From: Dehalococcoidia bacterium
Lineage (GTDB): Bacteria > Chloroflexota > Dehalococcoidia > Lucifugimonadales > UBA3495
Length of the DNA stretch: 64,000 nt
Assembly: GCA_965262595.1 (NCBI GenBank)
Contig: OZ253548.1
Span: 951,645 to 1,015,644, forward strand
Reading direction: 5' to 3'
A model generated the notes under the pieces. The model did no database searches, was not told the origin of the DNA, and worked only from the letters and a program-made list of their open reading frames with translations. A program made the translations under genes and the position numbers. Below are positions 3,818 through 64,000 of the stretch, in pieces (positions within the stretch are counted from its first letter, which is position 1; each line of letters starts with the position of its first letter).

Positions 3818-4233
3818 AAGTTATTCGTTAATCACTTGAACAAAATAAATCATCAATTCTGGAAATATTGTTGAAGAATTTAAACTATATACGAGTATAT
3901 TGATACGAAACTAGAATCTTTTGTGATATATTTACTGAAGTTAATTAAGATGATTTGTAGCTGATAGCTACGTTTTCATCACATGTTACGAATCAAAACA
4001 TCTGGGATCATTAAAATATAGTGCAGGAGGTGACAGTTAAGGAAGGGTATATTCTTGGCTCTGCTCAGATATAAGTTGGAATTCATGGGCGTGTAAGGGT
4101 CGCTGCCAGACTGTCGGCCCGGCACATCGGCGGTTGGACTTCAAGACCAATCACGAAAGGCGAAGAGCCAACGGACTAATTAACGACTCCCACCTGAAGC
4201 GCCTGGCGCCAAACCTGCCTTTTGGGAGAGATA

Positions 4234-6111
4234 ATGAAGACTAACCGAATTCAGAAGATGCCTAACCAATGGTTGATCAAACCCAGGGCACTCTTATATG
4301 GGCCGATTATTGCGGTGTTGGCCCTGGCCGCCGTGGCCTGTGGTTCGTCCGCTCCTGCCACGGCAATTCCTGCCGCCACGGTTGAACCGGCCGCTGCTGC
4401 GCCGGCACCTACGGCGGTGCCCGCCGAGGCGGCAATGCCCGCCGAAGAAATGATGGCCGAGGGCAAGAATGCGCCTTCCTTTGCCGATTACTGGCAGCCC
4501 GACACCGGGTTCTACGGACAGCCGGTTTACGGCGGCACCCTCCGCGTCAATTATGAAGACCCCCTGGAACATGCCAACGCCTGGGGATCAGGCTCCGGCG
4601 TGACCGACCGGTATCGAATGCCCACCGGCGCCACCCTGATAATGGAAAACCCCTATGACGCCGGCGCTCCGCTGCTCCCCGAGTTGGCCCAAAGCTGGAC
4701 GATCCATGATGACCTGGCCGGTGTAACCTTCGATTTCCGGGAGGGCACTACCTGGCATAACGGCGACATCTTCACCTGTGAAGACGCCCGGTTCACCTTG
4801 GAAACCATGATAACCGGCAACGGCCTTACCGCCAGCAACATGAAGAGCCGCCTCGCCAACGTTGTATTGAACGAGACGACTTGCTCTGACGACCTGACCC
4901 TGGAAATGCGGTTCTCCGGTCCCACTGGAATACCCTTGCTCCCGCTGTCAAACCGCCGGGGCCAAATATTCAACAAGGCCTGGTTTGTAGCCGGTGGCGA
5001 AGAAGTGATGTTCCAGGATGTCTCGGTAGGTCTTGGCCCCTTCATGTGGGCTCCGGGCCAGTCCGTAGGCATTGACGAGCAACACTATGATAAGAACCCC
5101 AATTACTACATACCTGAGCTACCTTACGTGGATGAGTTGGTCGTCTTCGGTATCCTGGACGAGTCGGCGCAGCAGGCCACCCAATTGGCCCACCAGACCG
5201 ACTGGCACTGGGTGCGTAACTTCGGCCAGTATCGGGCCTATGTGGACCACGACCAGATTATGACGGTTATCCGGGCCACCCGCGGCAACTTCCGCTTGTG
5301 GATCAACCCGCGAATCCCGCCCTTCGACAACGTTAGAGTGCGGCAGGCCATCGTCATGAGCATCGACCGGGAGGCTGCCATTACAGTACTCCAGGATGGT
5401 TACGGAGCCACGGGCTTCTTTGGTTATGCTCCGGGCAGCCCCTGGAACCTCTCGCCGGAAAAGGGCTGCGCCGTCCCCGGCTGGTGCCCGTCCGAAGATA
5501 TGGAAGCTACTCGGGCCGAGGCCAGGAAGATTCTGGAGGAAGAAGGCTTCGACTTCGACGAGTCCTATCTCTTTACCGTAGAGTCGGATGCACAGGTGCA
5601 GGCTCGCGCCACCTTCCTGCAGGAGCAGCTGCGGCTAGTGGGAATCAAAACCGACTTCGACTCGGTTGAAACCATTGCCTACCGCCAGCAGGATGTCAAC
5701 GGCACTTGGGGCGCGCTCAAGCCTGGAAACAGTACGGTTACCGCGGACGACCCCAATGCAGGCGTGGCATCCTACCTCCGCTGCGACTCCACAAGCAACT
5801 ACTGGACTCCCAACGGCCCCTGCGACTTAGAAATCGTCGCATTGTTGGACCAGGCGCAGACCGAGCTGGACTTCACTGCCCGTAAGGCCCTGTCCGACGA
5901 AATGCAACTCCAGGCGATGAGACTCTATGGTTCCTTCCCGGTTTACTGGGAGCAGGAAGCGGTGTCTTTCTGGCCGGAGGTCAGGGGTTACGCTCACTTC
6001 CCGGCCCCCAACGGTTCCTTCCTGAAGTTTATGCACCTGTGGATTGATCCGGCCCACAAGGATGACACGGGCAATAAGGGTCAAACCACCGGCGTACCCG
6101 GGGGAATCTAG
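4234..6111 (+). CDS. ABC transporter substrate-binding lipoprotein, family 5 (peptide/opine/nickel type), paralog 1
   Basis: ATG at 4234 sits behind GGGAG; the track's TTG at 4222 is less likely. Signal peptide with a lipobox-like LAAVAC|GSS, an Ala/Pro linker, then YGGTLRVNYEDPLEH...NPNYYIPELPYVD..V.FGILDE.AQQA, typical SBP_bac_5 features. Confidence 0.85.
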   Translation: MKTNRIQKMPNQWLIKPRALLYGPIIAVLALAAVACGSSAPATAIPAATVEPAAAAPAPTAVPAEAAMPAEEMMAEGKNAPSFADYWQPDTGFYGQPVYGGTLRVNYEDPLEHANAWGSGSGVTDRYRMPTGATLIMENPYDAGAPLLPELAQSWTIHDDLAGVTFDFREGTTWHNGDIFTCEDARFTLETMITGNGLTASNMKSRLANVVLNETTCSDDLTLEMRFSGPTGIPLLPLSNRRGQIFNKAWFVAGGEEVMFQDVSVGLGPFMWAPGQSVGIDEQHYDKNPNYYIPELPYVDELVVFGILDESAQQATQLAHQTDWHWVRNFGQYRAYVDHDQIMTVIRATRGNFRLWINPRIPPFDNVRVRQAIVMSIDREAAITVLQDGYGATGFFGYAPGSPWNLSPEKGCAVPGWCPSEDMEATRAEARKILEEEGFDFDESYLFTVESDAQVQARATFLQEQLRLVGIKTDFDSVETIAYRQQDVNGTWGALKPGNSTVTADDPNAGVASYLRCDSTSNYWTPNGPCDLEIVALLDQAQTELDFTARKALSDEMQLQAMRLYGSFPVYWEQEAVSFWPEVRGYAHFPAPNGSFLKFMHLWIDPAHKDDTGNKGQTTGVPGGI

Positions 6112-58934: not shown

Positions 58935-60494
58935 CTATTGGGAACGCAACGCTCGGCCCGGCAATGCACCGGTGTGAATACCCTGGTCGATAACCGGTTG
59001 TCCATTGACAATAACGTAGTCAATACCTACCGGGTATTGCTTCGGCTGCTCAAAAGTGGCTTTGGCTTCGACTCGCTCCGGGGCGAAGATGACCAAATCC
59101 GCCTTCATCCCGTCACGAATGATTCCGCGGTCCGTTAGCCCCAACCGCTGGGCCGGAATGGAGGTCATCTTCCGCACCGCCTCCTCTAACCGAAACAAGC
59201 CCTCTTCCCTGACAAATTGCCCCAAGACGTAAGGGAAAGTGCCGTAAGTCCTGGGATTAGGCTGGCTGCCGGTCAGCAGCCCGTCCGAGCCAACCATCTG
59301 CGCCGGGTGCCTGGCGATGGTGCGAATATTATCCGGGTTTCCGGTTCGGGCTACAAAGGCAACGTTCAGGTTTTCCTCGATTAGCAAATCGCAGATCGCG
59401 TCAACCATCGATTTACCCTGATGTTGGGCCAGGTCAACCAGCGAACGACCCTCCCACTCCTTGTTTTTGTCCGAACCGACGTGACTGAAGATATAGTGAT
59501 CCAGGGTTAACCCCCATTGGGGTTCCACCGAGTCTCCCATTTCGTCCCGAATGCTCCGCTGCTGAATTCGTTCCAGCAGTACCGCGGGTCCCCCGGCGTG
59601 TACCCAATAGGGCAGCAAGGAGTGCAGCACCGTACTGGCGGCGGCATAAGGATACTGGTCGAAGGTTAGGTCAATTCCCGCATTGCGGCCCTCATCCACC
59701 AGGGCCACCATCCGCTCACCCATCCCGTCCACCGGATTGTGGTAATGGGAAATATGGACCGGCACCCCACTACGTTGGCCGATATTTATCGCCTCCCGGA
59801 AGGGGTCGAGCAGGCGGTCGCCCAGGCTGTAACGGGCGTGAGTCATATAGAAGCCGCCGAAGTCCTTGACTGCCTCACTGACCGCCACCAACTCGTCAGT
59901 ATCACTATAGGCCCCCGGCGGATAGGTCAGGCCGGTGGCGAAACCGAAGGCGCCGTCCCGCATACCCTGGCGGGCTAATTCTTGCATCCGGGCCAGCTCA
60001 GACGCGTTGGGCAGCCGGTCATCCCAACCCATCGCTTCAACCCGTATGGCGGCGTGGGGCACGAAGTAAACGACGTTACAGGCCACGTTCCCATCGAACA
60101 GGTCCAGAAAGTCCTTCACGCTGCTCCAGCGCATATCCGGCGGAGGATTCCCATTGACCGCCGCCAGGTAAGTAAGCAACTGCTCCAACTTGGCCGGAGA
60201 GGTAGGAGCATAGGACAAGCCGTCCATTCCCAGAGCGTCCGTAGTCACACCCTGGCGCAATTTAGCCTCGTGCCTGGGGTCGGTCAAAAGCAGCAAGTCG
60301 GAATGGGAATGCATATCAATGAAGCCCGGGCAGACCACGGATTCGTTGGCCTCAATAATGCGCGCCGACTCAACTGCGGAAGTGTCGCCGCGCAACACGG
60401 AAACGGTATCCCCGCTTACGGCCACACTACCCCGGAACCAGGTTTGGCCGGTGCCATCAATGATGCGACCACCATTAATCAATAAATCAAACAT
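58935..60494 (-). CDS. N-acyl-D-amino-acid deacylase (D-aminoacylase), amidohydrolase superfamily
   Basis: 519 aa. MFDLLINGGRIIDGTG...VCPGFIDMHSHSD...and a C-terminus typical of the D-aminoacylase family. Confidence 0.8.
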   Translation of the reverse strand: MFDLLINGGRIIDGTGQTWFRGSVAVSGDTVSVLRGDTSAVESARIIEANESVVCPGFIDMHSHSDLLLLTDPRHEAKLRQGVTTDALGMDGLSYAPTSPAKLEQLLTYLAAVNGNPPPDMRWSSVKDFLDLFDGNVACNVVYFVPHAAIRVEAMGWDDRLPNASELARMQELARQGMRDGAFGFATGLTYPPGAYSDTDELVAVSEAVKDFGGFYMTHARYSLGDRLLDPFREAINIGQRSGVPVHISHYHNPVDGMGERMVALVDEGRNAGIDLTFDQYPYAAASTVLHSLLPYWVHAGGPAVLLERIQQRSIRDEMGDSVEPQWGLTLDHYIFSHVGSDKNKEWEGRSLVDLAQHQGKSMVDAICDLLIEENLNVAFVARTGNPDNIRTIARHPAQMVGSDGLLTGSQPNPRTYGTFPYVLGQFVREEGLFRLEEAVRKMTSIPAQRLGLTDRGIIRDGMKADLVIFAPERVEAKATFEQPKQYPVGIDYVIVNGQPVIDQGIHTGALPGRALRSQ

Positions 60495-60654
60495 AGCTCC
60501 AACCTCGTTTTCTTTCTGGCATATGTTAGCGGTATTATGCTAAATAACCCGTGTATTTACTCAGTTCTTTCGATAATCCTTATATTATGGATCTATTTTA
60601 GACCATAACCAACAAATAAACCTATTATATGACCGTATTGCTTCATTGTACGGT

Positions 60655-60683
60655 TTGACAACCTCTACCAATACAGATAATAT
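60655..60683 (+). promoter_or_regulatory. Near-consensus sigma70-type promoter
   Basis: TTGACA (60655-60660), 17 nt, TAATAT (60678-60683), in an AT-rich intergenic tract. Confidence 0.45.
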
Positions 60684-60723
60684 CACTTTGAACGCACCCA
60701 AAACAAAGGGTGGAGGATTAAGG

Positions 60724-60894
60724 ATGCGTGTAAGTTTATCACGTAAATCCCAGGTTGAACCTGACTCTAGTCCGCCGGAGTGCCCTGAGTACTCCAGTTG
60801 TATGTTCTGGCGCAGATATTATCGCGATGAGGCGGCTTCTCACACCGGGCACACCTCTTCTCAGCGCAACCGCCAGCTTCCCTGCGAGCCTTAG
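60724..60894 (+). CDS. Candidate small ORF (56 aa, Cys/Ser/Arg-rich), unknown function
   Basis: GGTGGAGGA-ttaagg-ATG lies about 35 nt downstream of the promoter above. The product is MRVSLSRKSQVEPDSSPPECPEYSSCMFWRRYYRDEAASHTGHTSSQRNRQLPCEP. I recognise no homology. Confidence 0.25.
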   Translation: MRVSLSRKSQVEPDSSPPECPEYSSCMFWRRYYRDEAASHTGHTSSQRNRQLPCEP

Positions 60895-61111
60895 CTACTT
60901 CCAAGTCCACATTTAGAGTTTCTTTCGAGCCGGTCAGTCCAGGCTTCTTACGGCTATGCCGGTAAAATCGGGCTTTCCAGCGCTTGAACAGGTTCTCGCT
61001 ACCAAGAGACAAAGCTTTTTACAGCTATTGGCGTGATATCCGTGCACCTCTGCGTTTCGCTTAATCGCCCTGTTCGAAATCGGTAAAACAACTAACAAAG
61101 GAGACATTTAT

Positions 61112-61480
61112 ATGCGAATACTTATGCGGTCGAAAATTCACCGAGCCACAGTCACCAACTGCGACGAAGACTACATCGGCAGCATCGTCATTGACCAGGA
61201 CTTGATGGACCGGTCGGATATTTGGGAGCATGAAAAAGTGCTGATCTGCGACATAGACAACGGTAACCGCTTCGAGACGTACGCGATTTCCGGCGCCCGC
61301 GGGAGTGGCATAATATCCGTGCAGGGTGCGGCCGCCAAGCTGACCAACCCCGGAAACAAGGTCATCATTATGGCCTTCGAAGTTACCGATGTGCCGGTGG
61401 AGCCCCGAGCAATTCTGGTCAACCAGACTAACGAGTTTGTGGAGTACTTGTCGGGAGTGGAGAATGCCATCAAGGTATAG
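61112..61480 (+). CDS. panD: Aspartate 1-decarboxylase (pyruvoyl-dependent)
   Basis: 122 aa. MRILMRSKIHRATVT..DEDYIGSIVIDQDLMD (Gly-Ser self-cleavage site)...ISGARGSG.I..NGAAA. Confidence 0.95.
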   Translation: MRILMRSKIHRATVTNCDEDYIGSIVIDQDLMDRSDIWEHEKVLICDIDNGNRFETYAISGARGSGIISVQGAAAKLTNPGNKVIIMAFEVTDVPVEPRAILVNQTNEFVEYLSGVENAIKV

Positions 61481-62282
61481 TGAATCCGAAACCGAAGAAT
61501 ATTACGACCACGAGGATGCGGTTTACCGGGCCCTATGGGACAAGGATGGCAGTGTCCATTGGGGTTTGTTCGAAGACGGCGCCAATATGTCCTTCCTGGA
61601 GGCCGGGGCCAACCTGAACACGGTGATGCAACGGCGGGGGCGCCTGGACTCCGATTCCAGGGTGATTGACGTAGGATGCGGCAGCGGCACCACCGCGATT
61701 GCTGTATGCCGGGCTTTGGGTTGCCACGTCACCGGGGTTGACCTGAGCGGCGTGCGAATTGCCAACGCCATTGAATCCCTGAAAGAGCAGACGCCACAAA
61801 TACAGGGGAAGATTGCTTTCGAAAAGGCATCGGCCACCGACTTGCCTTTTGAGGCGGCAACCTTTTCCCGTGCCTGGAGCCAGGCAACCATTTATCACGT
61901 GCCGGACAAAATAACGGTGCTCCGGGAAGTTTACCGGGTATTGCAACCGGGCGGGATTTTCGTTTTTGACGACCTGATTAAGCCTCAGCCAAACATTGGC
62001 GAGGCTGCCCGCAAGTTCGTTTACGAGCGGCTGCTTTACGACACGGACTTCAGCTTCCAGTCTTACCAGGACACCTTGAAGTCGGTCGGGTTCAACGTTC
62101 TGGAAGCCGAGGACATTTCCCGCCATCTGAAGACCAGCTACCAAATGCTTAGCGATGCCGCCGCCCAGGGTAACCAAGAACATCCCGAACGGTTTGACTT
62201 CCTCGCCGAAGCCTACAACGAAACCGCTCTGGCCGTTGACCGTAAAGAGGTGGGCTGGGCAATGTTCGTCTGCCAGAAGTAG
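61464..62282 (+). CDS. Class I SAM-dependent N-methyltransferase, sarcosine/dimethylglycine N-methyltransferase (SDMT)-like
   Basis: ATG at 61464 behind GGAG, overlapping the panD end by 17 nt. YYDHEDAVYRALWDKDGSVHWGLF...VIDVGCGSGTTA...LPFE...WSQATIYHV...VLQPGGIFVFDD...GWAMFVCQK is colinear with cyanobacterial/halophile SDMT as I remember it. Confidence 0.7.
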   Translation: MPSRYSESETEEYYDHEDAVYRALWDKDGSVHWGLFEDGANMSFLEAGANLNTVMQRRGRLDSDSRVIDVGCGSGTTAIAVCRALGCHVTGVDLSGVRIANAIESLKEQTPQIQGKIAFEKASATDLPFEAATFSRAWSQATIYHVPDKITVLREVYRVLQPGGIFVFDDLIKPQPNIGEAARKFVYERLLYDTDFSFQSYQDTLKSVGFNVLEAEDISRHLKTSYQMLSDAAAQGNQEHPERFDFLAEAYNETALAVDRKEVGWAMFVCQK

Positions 62283-62324
62283 CCAAATCGAACGCATCAA
62301 TTTGTCGCATTCAAGGACAAGAGC

Positions 62325-62951
62325 ATGACCGAACAAAACCGCGTTGAGTGGGTTTATTCATCGCAAAACGAAAAGGAACTGGAAGAACGGTACGACCAGT
62401 GGGCGCAAGAATACGATACTGACCTGGAAACCGACTTCGGTTGGATTTCGCCGCAACGCACTTCCGATGCCTTTGCCAGGTACGTGCCCCAGGAAGCGTC
62501 CATCCTGGACGCCGGCGCCGGCACCGGTTTGGTAGGACAGTGCCTCTATGATCAGGGCTACCGAAAAATGACGGCGATGGATTTGTCCTTGGGAATGTTG
62601 GATGTGGCCCGCAGCAAGAACATCTACCAGGCCTTCCACCAGATGGTTATGGGCGAGCGGCTGGACTACGCCACCGATGAATTCGACGCGGCGATTATAG
62701 TCGGTGTGTTTACCCAGGGCCATGCTCCCGCCAGTTCCCTGGACGAGTTGGTTCGAGTTACCAAGCCGGGAGGCCATATAGTCTTCAGCCTGCGGACCGA
62801 CACTCGCCTGGGAAGCGGGTTCAAAGAAAAGCAGGAAGACCTGGAGTCATCGGGCCGGTGGAAGCTGGTCGAAGTAAGCGATACCTTCCAGCCCCTGCCC
62901 AAGGGGGAACCGGAAGTCCTGCATCAGGTTTGGGTTTACCAGGTTAGCTAG
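62325..62951 (+). CDS. Class I SAM-dependent methyltransferase (Methyltransf_11/25 type)
   Basis: 208 aa. ILDAGAGTGLVGQCL...MDLSLGML...FDAAIIVGVF..GH...VTKPGGHIVFSL. Confidence 0.7.
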   Translation: MTEQNRVEWVYSSQNEKELEERYDQWAQEYDTDLETDFGWISPQRTSDAFARYVPQEASILDAGAGTGLVGQCLYDQGYRKMTAMDLSLGMLDVARSKNIYQAFHQMVMGERLDYATDEFDAAIIVGVFTQGHAPASSLDELVRVTKPGGHIVFSLRTDTRLGSGFKEKQEDLESSGRWKLVEVSDTFQPLPKGEPEVLHQVWVYQVS

Positions 62952-62993
62952 CCACCGGGTCGCCCGGAACTAACAGCCGAATTCCGATCCCCC

Positions 62994-63045
62994 AAAAAAC
63001 ATCAACCGATGCAGCCTTTACGGCGCCAACGGTTGATATTTTTTG
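62994..63045. terminator. Bidirectional intrinsic terminator between convergent genes
   Basis: An A-tract, ATCAACCG (63001-63008) pairing with CGGTTGAT (63030-63037), then ATTTTTTG. Confidence 0.6.
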
Positions 63046-63128
63046 TCAGCCCGATTGTTCCAGCTTGGGGAGGTTCCACCCCTTGGTTCCCCAAGTATGG
63101 TTTTTCCGTAGCGGCAAATTTGGGGCTA

Positions 63129-63533
63129 TTATTCGCGCGTCTCCAGGGCAAAGCCTCGATACTTGACTTCCTGGAGGCAAATGGGACAGCGTTGCTCTTC
63201 GGCATGGCCCACTGCCGGCCAAATGTCCGGGGCGGTTATACCGCAGAGAAAGACCGGCGAAACCTCCTCTATTCCCAGACTGTCCACGTAATGCACCTCG
63301 CCGGACTGTCTGGGATTAGGCCACCACCAGGGGGTCAACTGCTGGGCAAGACTATTAATATGTTGCTTGGCCTCGTCGAGCCAACCGTCCTCCGGCAATT
63401 CTACCACCCAAGCCCGGCCTTCCGACTCCGTTTGCCGCCGCGCCTGCAACTTTCCCTCCCGTATGTAGCGACGGACGACACCCTGGGAGACGTTGAGCCG
63501 CCGTGAAGCTTCCAGGATAGTTACTTCTTCCAA
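63129..63533 (-). CDS. Excisionase/MerR-type HTH DNA-binding protein with an uncharacterised C-terminal domain
   Basis: 134 aa, TTG start. VTILEASRRLNVSQGVVRRYIREGKLQA matches the HTH_17-like pattern. The C-terminus carries C...H...CPIC residues. Confidence 0.5.
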   Translation of the reverse strand: MEEVTILEASRRLNVSQGVVRRYIREGKLQARRQTESEGRAWVVELPEDGWLDEAKQHINSLAQQLTPWWWPNPRQSGEVHYVDSLGIEEVSPVFLCGITAPDIWPAVGHAEEQRCPICLQEVKYRGFALETRE

Positions 63534-63626: not shown

Positions 63627-64000
63627 TCAGGACTGAGTGGCAGCGGTTAGCGGGTCCTCCATTGTATCGCCCAGCGAACCGCCGGGCGGCACCATTGGAT
63701 ACAAGTTCACCGACGGGTCCACCACAAACTCGATCAAGTAGGGGCCGTCATGAGCCTGGGCCTTGCGCAGGGCGGGCATCACATCTTCCTGGTGGGTAAC
63801 CTTCATAGCCGGTATGCCGTAGGCATGAGCCAGTTTAACAAACTCCGGCCCCGGAATCGGCACTTCCTTCAGGTGGTTCTGGAAGAACATTTCCTGCCAC
63901 TGGCGCACCATGCCCAGGTAACCATTATTGATCAAGGCTATTTTCACCGGAAGGTTCTCGTGGAATACCGTTGCCAATTCCTGGGAGGTCATTTGTATCC
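63627..64000 (-). CDS. ilvB: Acetolactate synthase large (catalytic) subunit, C-terminal part; 5' end beyond the window
   Basis: ...LPVKIALINNGYLGMVRQWQEMFF...YGIPAMKV...GPYLIEF.VD, the typical ALS/AHAS C-terminus. The frame stays open to the window edge. Confidence 0.85.
   Translation of the reverse strand, partial: IQMTSQELATVFHENLPVKIALINNGYLGMVRQWQEMFFQNHLKEVPIPGPEFVKLAHAYGIPAMKVTHQEDVMPALRKAQAHDGPYLIEFVVDPSVNLYPMVPPGGSLGDTMEDPLTAATQS

Follow-up and report, generated by a model that had tools for sequence, protein, structure and literature searches.

The closest described counterpart of the gene cluster analyzed here is the GSMT–SDMT route, in which two enzymes convert glycine to glycine betaine through three methyl transfers from S-adenosylmethionine (SAM). 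GSMT and SDMT (or DMT) occur in halophiles – Aphanothece halophytica, Halorhodospira, and Methanohalophilus – and are fused in Actinopolyspora. Another precedent concerns β-alanine betaine, a measured and actively methylated metabolite of ocean communities that was labeled via SAM-derived methyl groups in the North Pacific (PMC9321204). In the papers we found, the sole enzyme cited for its synthesis is the plant protein BANMT from Limonium latifolium, Plumbaginaceae (PMC9321204, PMC9699165). Here we describe a gene cluster in which the aspartate 1-decarboxylase gene panD overlaps a class I SAM-dependent methyltransferase gene (MT1) that has a second methyltransferase gene (MT2) on its 3′ side. 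The cluster lies within a 64,000-nucleotide stretch of DNA from a SAR202-type Dehalococcoidia bacterium (assembly GCA_965262595.1, contig OZ253548.1, positions 951,645 to 1,015,644), referred to below as the window, and the genome is a single contig of 3.44 Mb.

We consider it likely, taking the proposal as a whole, that positions 60655 to 63044 form a single operon – promoter, leader open reading frame (ORF), panD, MT1, MT2, and terminator – whose products would convert L-aspartate to N-methylated β-alanine, most likely β-alanine betaine (3-trimethylammoniopropanoate). Judging from its family membership, PanD would decarboxylate aspartate to β-alanine, and MT1 and MT2 would move three methyl groups from SAM to the β-alanine amino group. 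MT1 falls in a clade that includes iterative N-methyltransferases of small primary amines (SDMT and the phosphoethanolamine N-methyltransferases, PMTs), and may perform the later methylations or all three. In this bacterium, which is marine and sponge-associated, the resulting β-alanine betaine would serve as a compatible solute. Near-identical sequence occurs in sponge metagenome and metatranscriptome runs.

The proposed system shares several features with GSMT and SDMT: two adjacent class I SAM methyltransferases that would carry an amino acid to a betaine in three transfers, colinearity of MT1 with SDMT, the existence of two-methyltransferase fusions, and, in one lineage, linkage to a SAM synthetase gene. 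It differs in that the predicted substrate is β-alanine, supplied by a dedicated decarboxylase encoded in the operon, and in that MT1 scores below the SDMT cut-off and MT2 is METTL27-like rather than GSMT-like. Relative to BANMT, the proposed chemistry and product are equal – SAM-dependent conversion of β-alanine to β-alanine betaine – but the plant protein is one trifunctional enzyme, and we know of no PanD in the plant system. BANMT belongs to PF00891, the COMT-type O-methyltransferase family, which is not among the significant Pfam matches of MT1 or MT2; a bacterial route would thus be of independent origin. Within the literature covered, which leaves out most subscription journals, we found neither a bacterial pathway to β-alanine betaine nor a report on SAR202 or on an operon joining panD to methyltransferase genes. 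Comparative genomics supports a predicted form of betaine synthesis that, like the glycine route, methylates an amino acid stepwise from SAM; what would be new are the substrate, the dedicated enzyme for its supply, and the enzyme pair.

panD overlaps and tracks MT1

The panD gene (61112–61480, + strand) encodes a 122 amino acid protein and ends with a TAG stop codon at 61478–61480. The MT1 frame opens with an ATG at 61464, giving a 17-nt overlap, and the 272-codon MT1 ORF (61464–62282, +; 272 amino acids) has a GGGAG 6 nt 5′ of its ATG. MT2 (62325–62951, +; 208 amino acids) begins 42 nt after the MT1 stop and is followed by a bidirectional intrinsic terminator hairpin (62993–63044) consisting of an A-run, a stem-loop, and a T-run, with a folding energy of −22.7 kcal/mol (z = −4.99). 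A preliminary description of this DNA had reported the panD–MT1 overlap, the second class I methyltransferase 42 nt on, and the terminator behind it, all of which agree with the ORF coordinates and the hairpin fold. It had also noted that panB and panC are absent from the window and suggested looking for them, and for another panD, elsewhere in the genome. Loci, genomes, and proteins in our surveys carry labels beginning with L, G, and P, respectively, with G000 the window's own genome. The window holds neither panB nor panC: panB lies at G000:C1:892550 and panC at 864824, about 120 kb and 148 kb upstream of panD and outside the window, which starts at 951645. The genome encodes a single panD.

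To our survey of panC, panD, MT1, and MT2 presence and adjacency belong 41 genomes from the order of the window genome. Thirty-eight encode panC, whereas panD and a clear MT1 ortholog are each found in 21. No genome carries a second panD, and 20 of the 21 panD genes adjoin an MT1 ortholog; the one panD hit unlinked to MT1 is a gene fragment in the fragmented genome G013. A single genome, 85% complete (G018), encodes MT1 and MT2 without panD. These presence patterns indicate that panD tracks MT1 and not panC. Approximately half of the relatives retain panC, which encodes pantoate-β-alanine ligase, without PanD, and in these β-alanine must come another way. Judged from its distribution, PanD in this order behaves as an accessory gene that is gained and lost together with the methyltransferases.

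We extended the comparison to the 80 best MT1 loci out of 185,579 species genomes. All 80 are from Dehalococcoidia/SAR202 metagenome-assembled genomes (MAGs), and every related record is likewise a MAG of Dehalococcoidia, SAR202, or Chloroflexota. The module extends to the open ocean, with examples in the ALOHA, Tara, and Io17 MAGs. Of the 80 loci, 77 contain MT2 and 74 contain panD, while the commonest flanking gene is present in just 35. Among 70 related loci, 61 have a panD whose 3′ end runs past the predicted MT1 start by 17–38 nt, and the arrangement is therefore not due to chance. Gene order varies in a minority of loci: three have panD-MT2-MT1 (L058, L059, and L072), and five have a duplicated MT1 in the order panD-MT1′-MT1-MT2 (L075, L085, L087, L089, and L105). 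At another locus (L015), panD and an intact MT1 are separated by a short MT1-like remnant (G005:C1:2947236-2947499) that contains an in-frame TAA and is apparently a decayed second copy from the kind of tandem duplication that is intact in the five loci above. A sample of 400 Chloroflexota genomes beyond the close relatives contained no MT1 ortholog at E ≤ 1e-60, which for a sample is not proof of absence.

Fusions of PanD, MT1, and MT2, and their contexts in other lineages

Components of the cluster also occur as fusion proteins. Four clusters of PanD-MT1 fusion proteins (389–394 amino acids) are 62–84% identical to one of them (P0089) and occur on contigs of up to 2.8 Mb. Among the matches listed by an MT1 profile search across 1.84 billion representative proteins, approximately eleven of 458–495 amino acids match the MT1 profile in two stretches. 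We confirmed two methyltransferase domains in each of P0202, P0203, and P0229, and found that P0203 is an MT1-MT2 fusion: its C-terminal half retains the N-terminal motif of MT2 and shares 36% identity with that protein. The existence of MT1-MT2 fusions suggests that the two enzymes usually work together. Three MAGs of the cyanobacterium Symploca (SIO1A3, SIO1B1, and SIO1C2) encode a 674 amino acid protein in which PanD is joined to a methyltransferase with weak GSMT similarity and to an MT1-like domain, and the SIO1C2 copy is on a 717-kb contig.

A contig labeled cyanobacterial (L116; 47% GC) carries MT1 and MT2 genes 57–60% identical to those of the window. Its panD is canonical, only 40% identical to SAR202 panD, and transcribed divergently from the accompanying MT1-MT2. 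This panD is thus of a different lineage, and the same gene set came together independently. The preliminary description had named a lack of conservation of the panD-methyltransferase linkage among the findings that would count against its reading, and the linkage proved to be kept across SAR202 families, in shuffled gene orders, in fusions, and with the non-orthologous cyanobacterial panD.

Other MT1-MT2 fusions have different neighbors. In the record GCA_024449895.1, a fusion gene is followed 6 nt later by panD and then by an S-adenosylmethionine synthetase gene, and one further fusion gene is followed by a class III aminotransferase gene. The fusion P0229 (L121:3518-8192, in a record whose name carries the label Minicystis) is beside a divergent MscS-type mechanosensitive channel gene, and the gene that follows encodes a 560 amino acid protein with CmcI-type methyltransferase and TauD domains.

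P0211 (L120:4641-7013; 790 amino acids) combines MT1, an MT2-like domain, and a dioxygenase domain. The best NCBIfam matches of the latter are gamma-butyrobetaine, trimethylaminoethylphosphonate, and trimethyllysine dioxygenases. These enzymes hydroxylate trimethylammonium compounds, and the fusion therefore gives indirect but independent support for a quaternary ammonium product of MT1-MT2. A gene 1.2 kb 3′ of P0211 (L120:8219-9322) encodes a pyridoxal phosphate-dependent decarboxylase resembling histidine decarboxylase (275 bits, cut-off 305). The L120 gene set hints at a route of decarboxylation, trimethylation, and hydroxylation to a hydroxy-betaine.

PanD retains the features of an aspartate decarboxylase

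By its profile scores, the window panD is a member of the aspartate 1-decarboxylase family: it passes the cut-offs of both TIGR00223 (117.7 bits, cut-off 106) and PF02261 (131 bits, cut-off 25), and matches Mycobacterium tuberculosis PanD (PDB 2c45) with E = 5e-30. The family is pyruvoyl-dependent, and the window protein retains both the Gly-Ser self-cleavage site, which is the source of the pyruvoyl group, and the catalytic residues. K8, H10, Y21, G23-S24, R53, T56, and Y57 are invariant across 17 PanD sequences from the clade and align with the M. tuberculosis and Escherichia coli proteins.

The window panD thus resembles the pantothenate/coenzyme A (CoA) enzymes of E. coli and M. tuberculosis in family, cleavage site, and catalytic residues, but differs in being linked to methyltransferase genes rather than to panB and panC, in its patchy distribution within an order where panC is near-universal, and at one residue. 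Position 71 is Gln in all 17 aligned SAR202 sequences (Q71) and Asn in E. coli and M. tuberculosis PanD; the cyanobacterial L116 panD keeps the Asn.

MT1 and MT2 lie outside the characterized betaine methyltransferase families

MT1 matches the class I SAM methyltransferase families of Pfam (Methyltransf_11/25; E = 1e-20) and has an invariant DxGCGxG motif. The preliminary description had called it colinear with SDMT. Alignment of MT1 residues 11–228 to positions 13–228 of the 278 in NF041675, the sarcosine/dimethylglycine N-methyltransferase family, upholds the colinearity, and the fold agrees (TM score 0.82 to SDMT 2o57); membership of the SDMT equivalog does not follow, since this best NCBIfam match reaches just 99.6 of the 550 bits required. 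On these scores MT1 is a distant SDMT paralog outside the equivalog. Names given to MT1 in databases are generic (UbiE-type), and a search of the ESM Atlas returned generic methyltransferase clusters only.

Sequence and structure searches place MT1 in an SDMT/MitM/RebM/PMT clade. An AlphaFold2 model (pLDDT 85) gave Foldseek TM scores of approximately 0.8 to AtmM, MitM, RebM, SDMT (2o57), and PMTs; a structure search with the C-terminal half of MT1 added nothing beyond the full-length search. PMTs and MitM are among the nearest solved homologs and folds, and PMTs resemble the proposed enzyme in trimethylating a small primary amine that bears an anionic group. They differ in that PMTs and MitM are only 18–29% identical to MT1, act on phosphoethanolamine and a mitomycin aziridine, respectively, and have no linked decarboxylase.

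A closer SDMT relative is found at another SAR202 locus (L108, positions 3968–5663, in G019), where an SDMT-like gene (162 bits against NF041675) adjoins a GSMT-like gene (306 bits, cut-off 350). The presence of this closer pair suggests that MT1 is not simply the local SDMT. MT1 and the L108 SDMT-like protein are 28% identical and colinear, and share an R..vY.R motif that includes the invariant MT1 residues Y187 and R189, which we infer to be candidate carboxylate-binding residues. The idea that the panD-methyltransferase module and the SDMT-like paralog exclude one another was rejected, as both are present in G005, G014, G023, and G037. In the window genome, searches returned no GSMT-like (NF051855) gene and no BCCT match. 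An ectoine synthase (EctC) search of this genome also returned no match; its control likewise matched no reference genome, making that result uninformative.

MT2 matches the Pfam class I SAM methyltransferases with E = 2.5e-14 and has an invariant LDAGAGTG motif. Its best match in both sequence and fold is METTL27/WBSCR27 (PDB 7qcb; E = 2e-22), which is also the top Foldseek match (TM 0.70) of an AlphaFold2 model with pLDDT 87. MT2 is weakly similar to bacterial phospholipid N-methyltransferases (8ys9, E = 6e-6; NF045882). It has no significant match to the GSMT family NF051855 and has only the SAM-binding core in common with the GSMT-like protein; MT1 therefore lacks the GSMT-type partner of an SDMT-like pairing.

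In G019, a genome of the same family as the window genome, MT2 (3995–4621 of L114; G019:C7:23516-32136) stands alone in the syntenic slot, between an amidohydrolase gene and genes for a helix-turn-helix (HTH) protein and a thiamine pyrophosphate (TPP) enzyme. panD, MT1, and the leader are missing from this slot, and the SDMT-like and GSMT-like pair of L108 lies elsewhere in the genome.

A conserved leader ORF precedes panD

Upstream of panD, a sigma-70-like promoter is predicted on the + strand at 60655–60683 (TTGACA, 17 nt, TAATAT) from a consensus match alone, at 10 of 12 positions. It is followed by a leader ORF of 56 codons (60724–60894, +), which has the strong ribosome-binding site GGTGGAGGA in front and encodes a C-terminus of Leu-Pro-Cys-Glu-Pro before a TAG stop codon. 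A spacer of 217 nt (60895–61111, +) then leads up to panD and may be an attenuation region.

Related loci have a similar organization. In 65 of 71, an ORF ending in [LIVM]-P-C-[ED]-[PT]-stop lies 146–328 nt upstream of panD (median 221), and loci encoding PanD-MT1 fusions also carry the leader. Sixty of 62 loci use TAG as the stop codon. Synonymous changes affect the codons for Leu, Glu, and the last Pro, whereas the remainder of the peptide diverges. The conserved C-terminus, the synonymous variation, and the TAG together show selection on the translated C-terminal peptide and its stop codon. In the 90 nt 3′ of the leader stop, C accounts for 35.7% and G for 23.5% of positions across 65 loci, against approximately 30% each in the background; this C-rich, G-poor tract is no more than suggestive of ligand-dependent ribosome stalling that would control the downstream genes. 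The leader motif is absent from both cyanobacterial loci (L116 and L119). An Rfam search of 60400–63200 at a permissive threshold matched no known RNA family, riboswitches included, and a search of the spacer for intrinsic terminators was negative.

TnaC and SpeFL are leader peptides that exert regulation by arresting the ribosome. As in those systems, a short upstream ORF has a conserved C-terminus and stop codon while the rest drifts, and the window leader ends in Pro-stop with a spacer of ~220 nt before the first structural gene. The window leader differs in having no sequence similarity to TnaC or SpeFL. The LPCEP-TAG leader is probably a translation-coupled attenuation regulator that would tune expression of the operon. 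Contigs from RNA libraries (sponge metatranscriptomes from two studies, four runs) start at ~60712–60880 and continue into panD, and one 3.6-kb contig covers panD, MT1, and MT2, though all four runs are represented by assembled contigs, which are not proof of transcription or of a single transcript and support no claim on depth or transcript ends.

At the other end of the cluster, the terminator hairpin separates MT2 from a convergent HTH gene (63129–63533, − strand) that encodes an HTH_17/excisionase-like protein with an uncharacterized C-terminal part. A TPP-enzyme gene follows (63627–64000, −). These two genes adjoin the module in 35 of the 80 loci, within the sublineage of the window genome and not further, and on this distribution they are synteny neighbors rather than members of the unit.

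Alternative explanations

Several observations weigh against the proposed route to β-alanine betaine. The case for an N-methylated β-alanine comes from comparative genomics, and the RNA-library contigs carry the limit given above. MT1 scores far below the SDMT cut-off, and its closest solved relatives extend to O- and C-methyltransferases and to a cyclase (AtmM, RebM, TleD, and SpnF); because this structural clade mixes N-, O-, and C-methyltransferases, the fold leaves both the substrate and N-methylation undecided. METTL27 is a vertebrate protein whose entries give a methyltransferase in complex with S-adenosylhomocysteine and do not state a substrate, so that no function can be transferred from it to MT2. 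MT2 orthologs occur without panD and MT1 in G008, G011, G017, G019, G032, and G035, and this persistence suggests that MT2 may also have a separate role. Across the 80 SAR202 MT1 loci, the operon has no linked gene for a transporter or an osmosensor. Finally, as the sole panD of the genome, the window gene has room for a housekeeping role, and probably also feeds CoA synthesis by providing β-alanine for pantothenate.

The independent occurrence of MT2, including its solitary position in the G019 slot, would be expected if PanD and MT1 sufficed, with MT1 carrying out all three N-methylations and MT2 acting on another substrate, such as a lipid head group or other small molecule. BANMT and the PMTs provide single-enzyme precedents for such a scheme, iterative N-methyltransferases are among the solved relatives of MT1, and the weak similarity of MT2 to phospholipid N-methyltransferases (8ys9 and NF045882) fits a lipid substrate. 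We nevertheless regard this scheme as unlikely, as MT2 accompanies MT1 in 77 of 80 loci, the linkage survives the panD-MT2-MT1 reordering, and MT1 carries a fused MT2-like domain in P0203 and P0211 at the least, with some ten further proteins of similar length matching in two stretches – fusions that are hard to explain if the two enzymes are unrelated. A different question is whether the product is an osmolyte betaine at all. The data do not fix how many methyl groups are transferred, other lineages have a TauD/BBOX-like dioxygenase fused to or beside MT1-MT2, and the window's strain occurs in sponge samples; the product could then be N-methyl- or N,N-dimethyl-β-alanine, a hydroxylated betaine, or a signal or building block with a possible link to symbiosis. 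In SAR202, however, the module consists of three conserved genes with no linked modifying enzyme, and it is also found in the open-ocean MAGs (ALOHA, Tara, and Io17). Elsewhere, the trimethylammonium-type dioxygenase, the SAM synthetase, and the MscS channel fit a fully methylated, abundant solute, and we judge a product other than an osmolyte betaine to be quite unlikely.

It is also conceivable, though very improbable, that panD is merely a housekeeping pantothenate gene, with methyltransferases that act on unrelated substrates and a linkage that reflects inherited synteny. The single panD and the dispersed panB and panC would accord with this, as would the generic UbiE-type names of MT1 and a fold that leaves its substrate undecided. 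The survey of the order speaks otherwise: approximately half of the relatives keep panC without panD, and no intact panD is found away from MT1, the G013 fragment being the only unlinked hit. Chance synteny is also difficult to reconcile with the PanD-MT1 and PanD-methyltransferase-MT1 fusions, the shuffled gene orders, and the pairing of L116 MT1-MT2 with a non-orthologous panD. We therefore retain as our preferred explanation the conversion of aspartate to β-alanine betaine by PanD, MT1, and MT2.

Implications for SAR202 bacteria and for related methyltransferases

The variety of MT1-MT2 contexts raises a wider possibility, which we offer tentatively, since it is somewhat unlikely to hold when all of its parts are taken jointly: MT1 and MT2 may constitute an uncharacterized and widely spread module for trimethylating omega-amino acids. 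Combined with PanD, the module would be the missing microbial route to β-alanine betaine in abundant ocean and sponge bacteria and in Symploca cyanobacteria. Combined with other decarboxylases, aminotransferases, or gamma-butyrobetaine-dioxygenase-like domains, it may yield other betaines or hydroxy-betaines, including by a carnitine-like route. As a further part of the same joint proposal, a new arrest peptide ending in LPCEP-TAG would sense a metabolite or stress and thereby switch the SAR202 operon.

SAR202 bacteria are among the most abundant deep-ocean and sponge-symbiont lineages. If the proposed route is correct, the SAR202 and marine cyanobacterial gene set would make the producers and the timing of β-alanine betaine synthesis testable in omics data. 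It would also give a function to the many proteins that currently bear UbiE-like or generic methyltransferase names, and offer the METTL27-like family its first biochemical lead. The LPCEP-TAG leader is, in addition, a candidate new regulatory peptide. PanD, for its part, would act as a high-flux precursor supplier outside CoA synthesis, which would matter wherever the presence of panD is read as pantothenate prototrophy.

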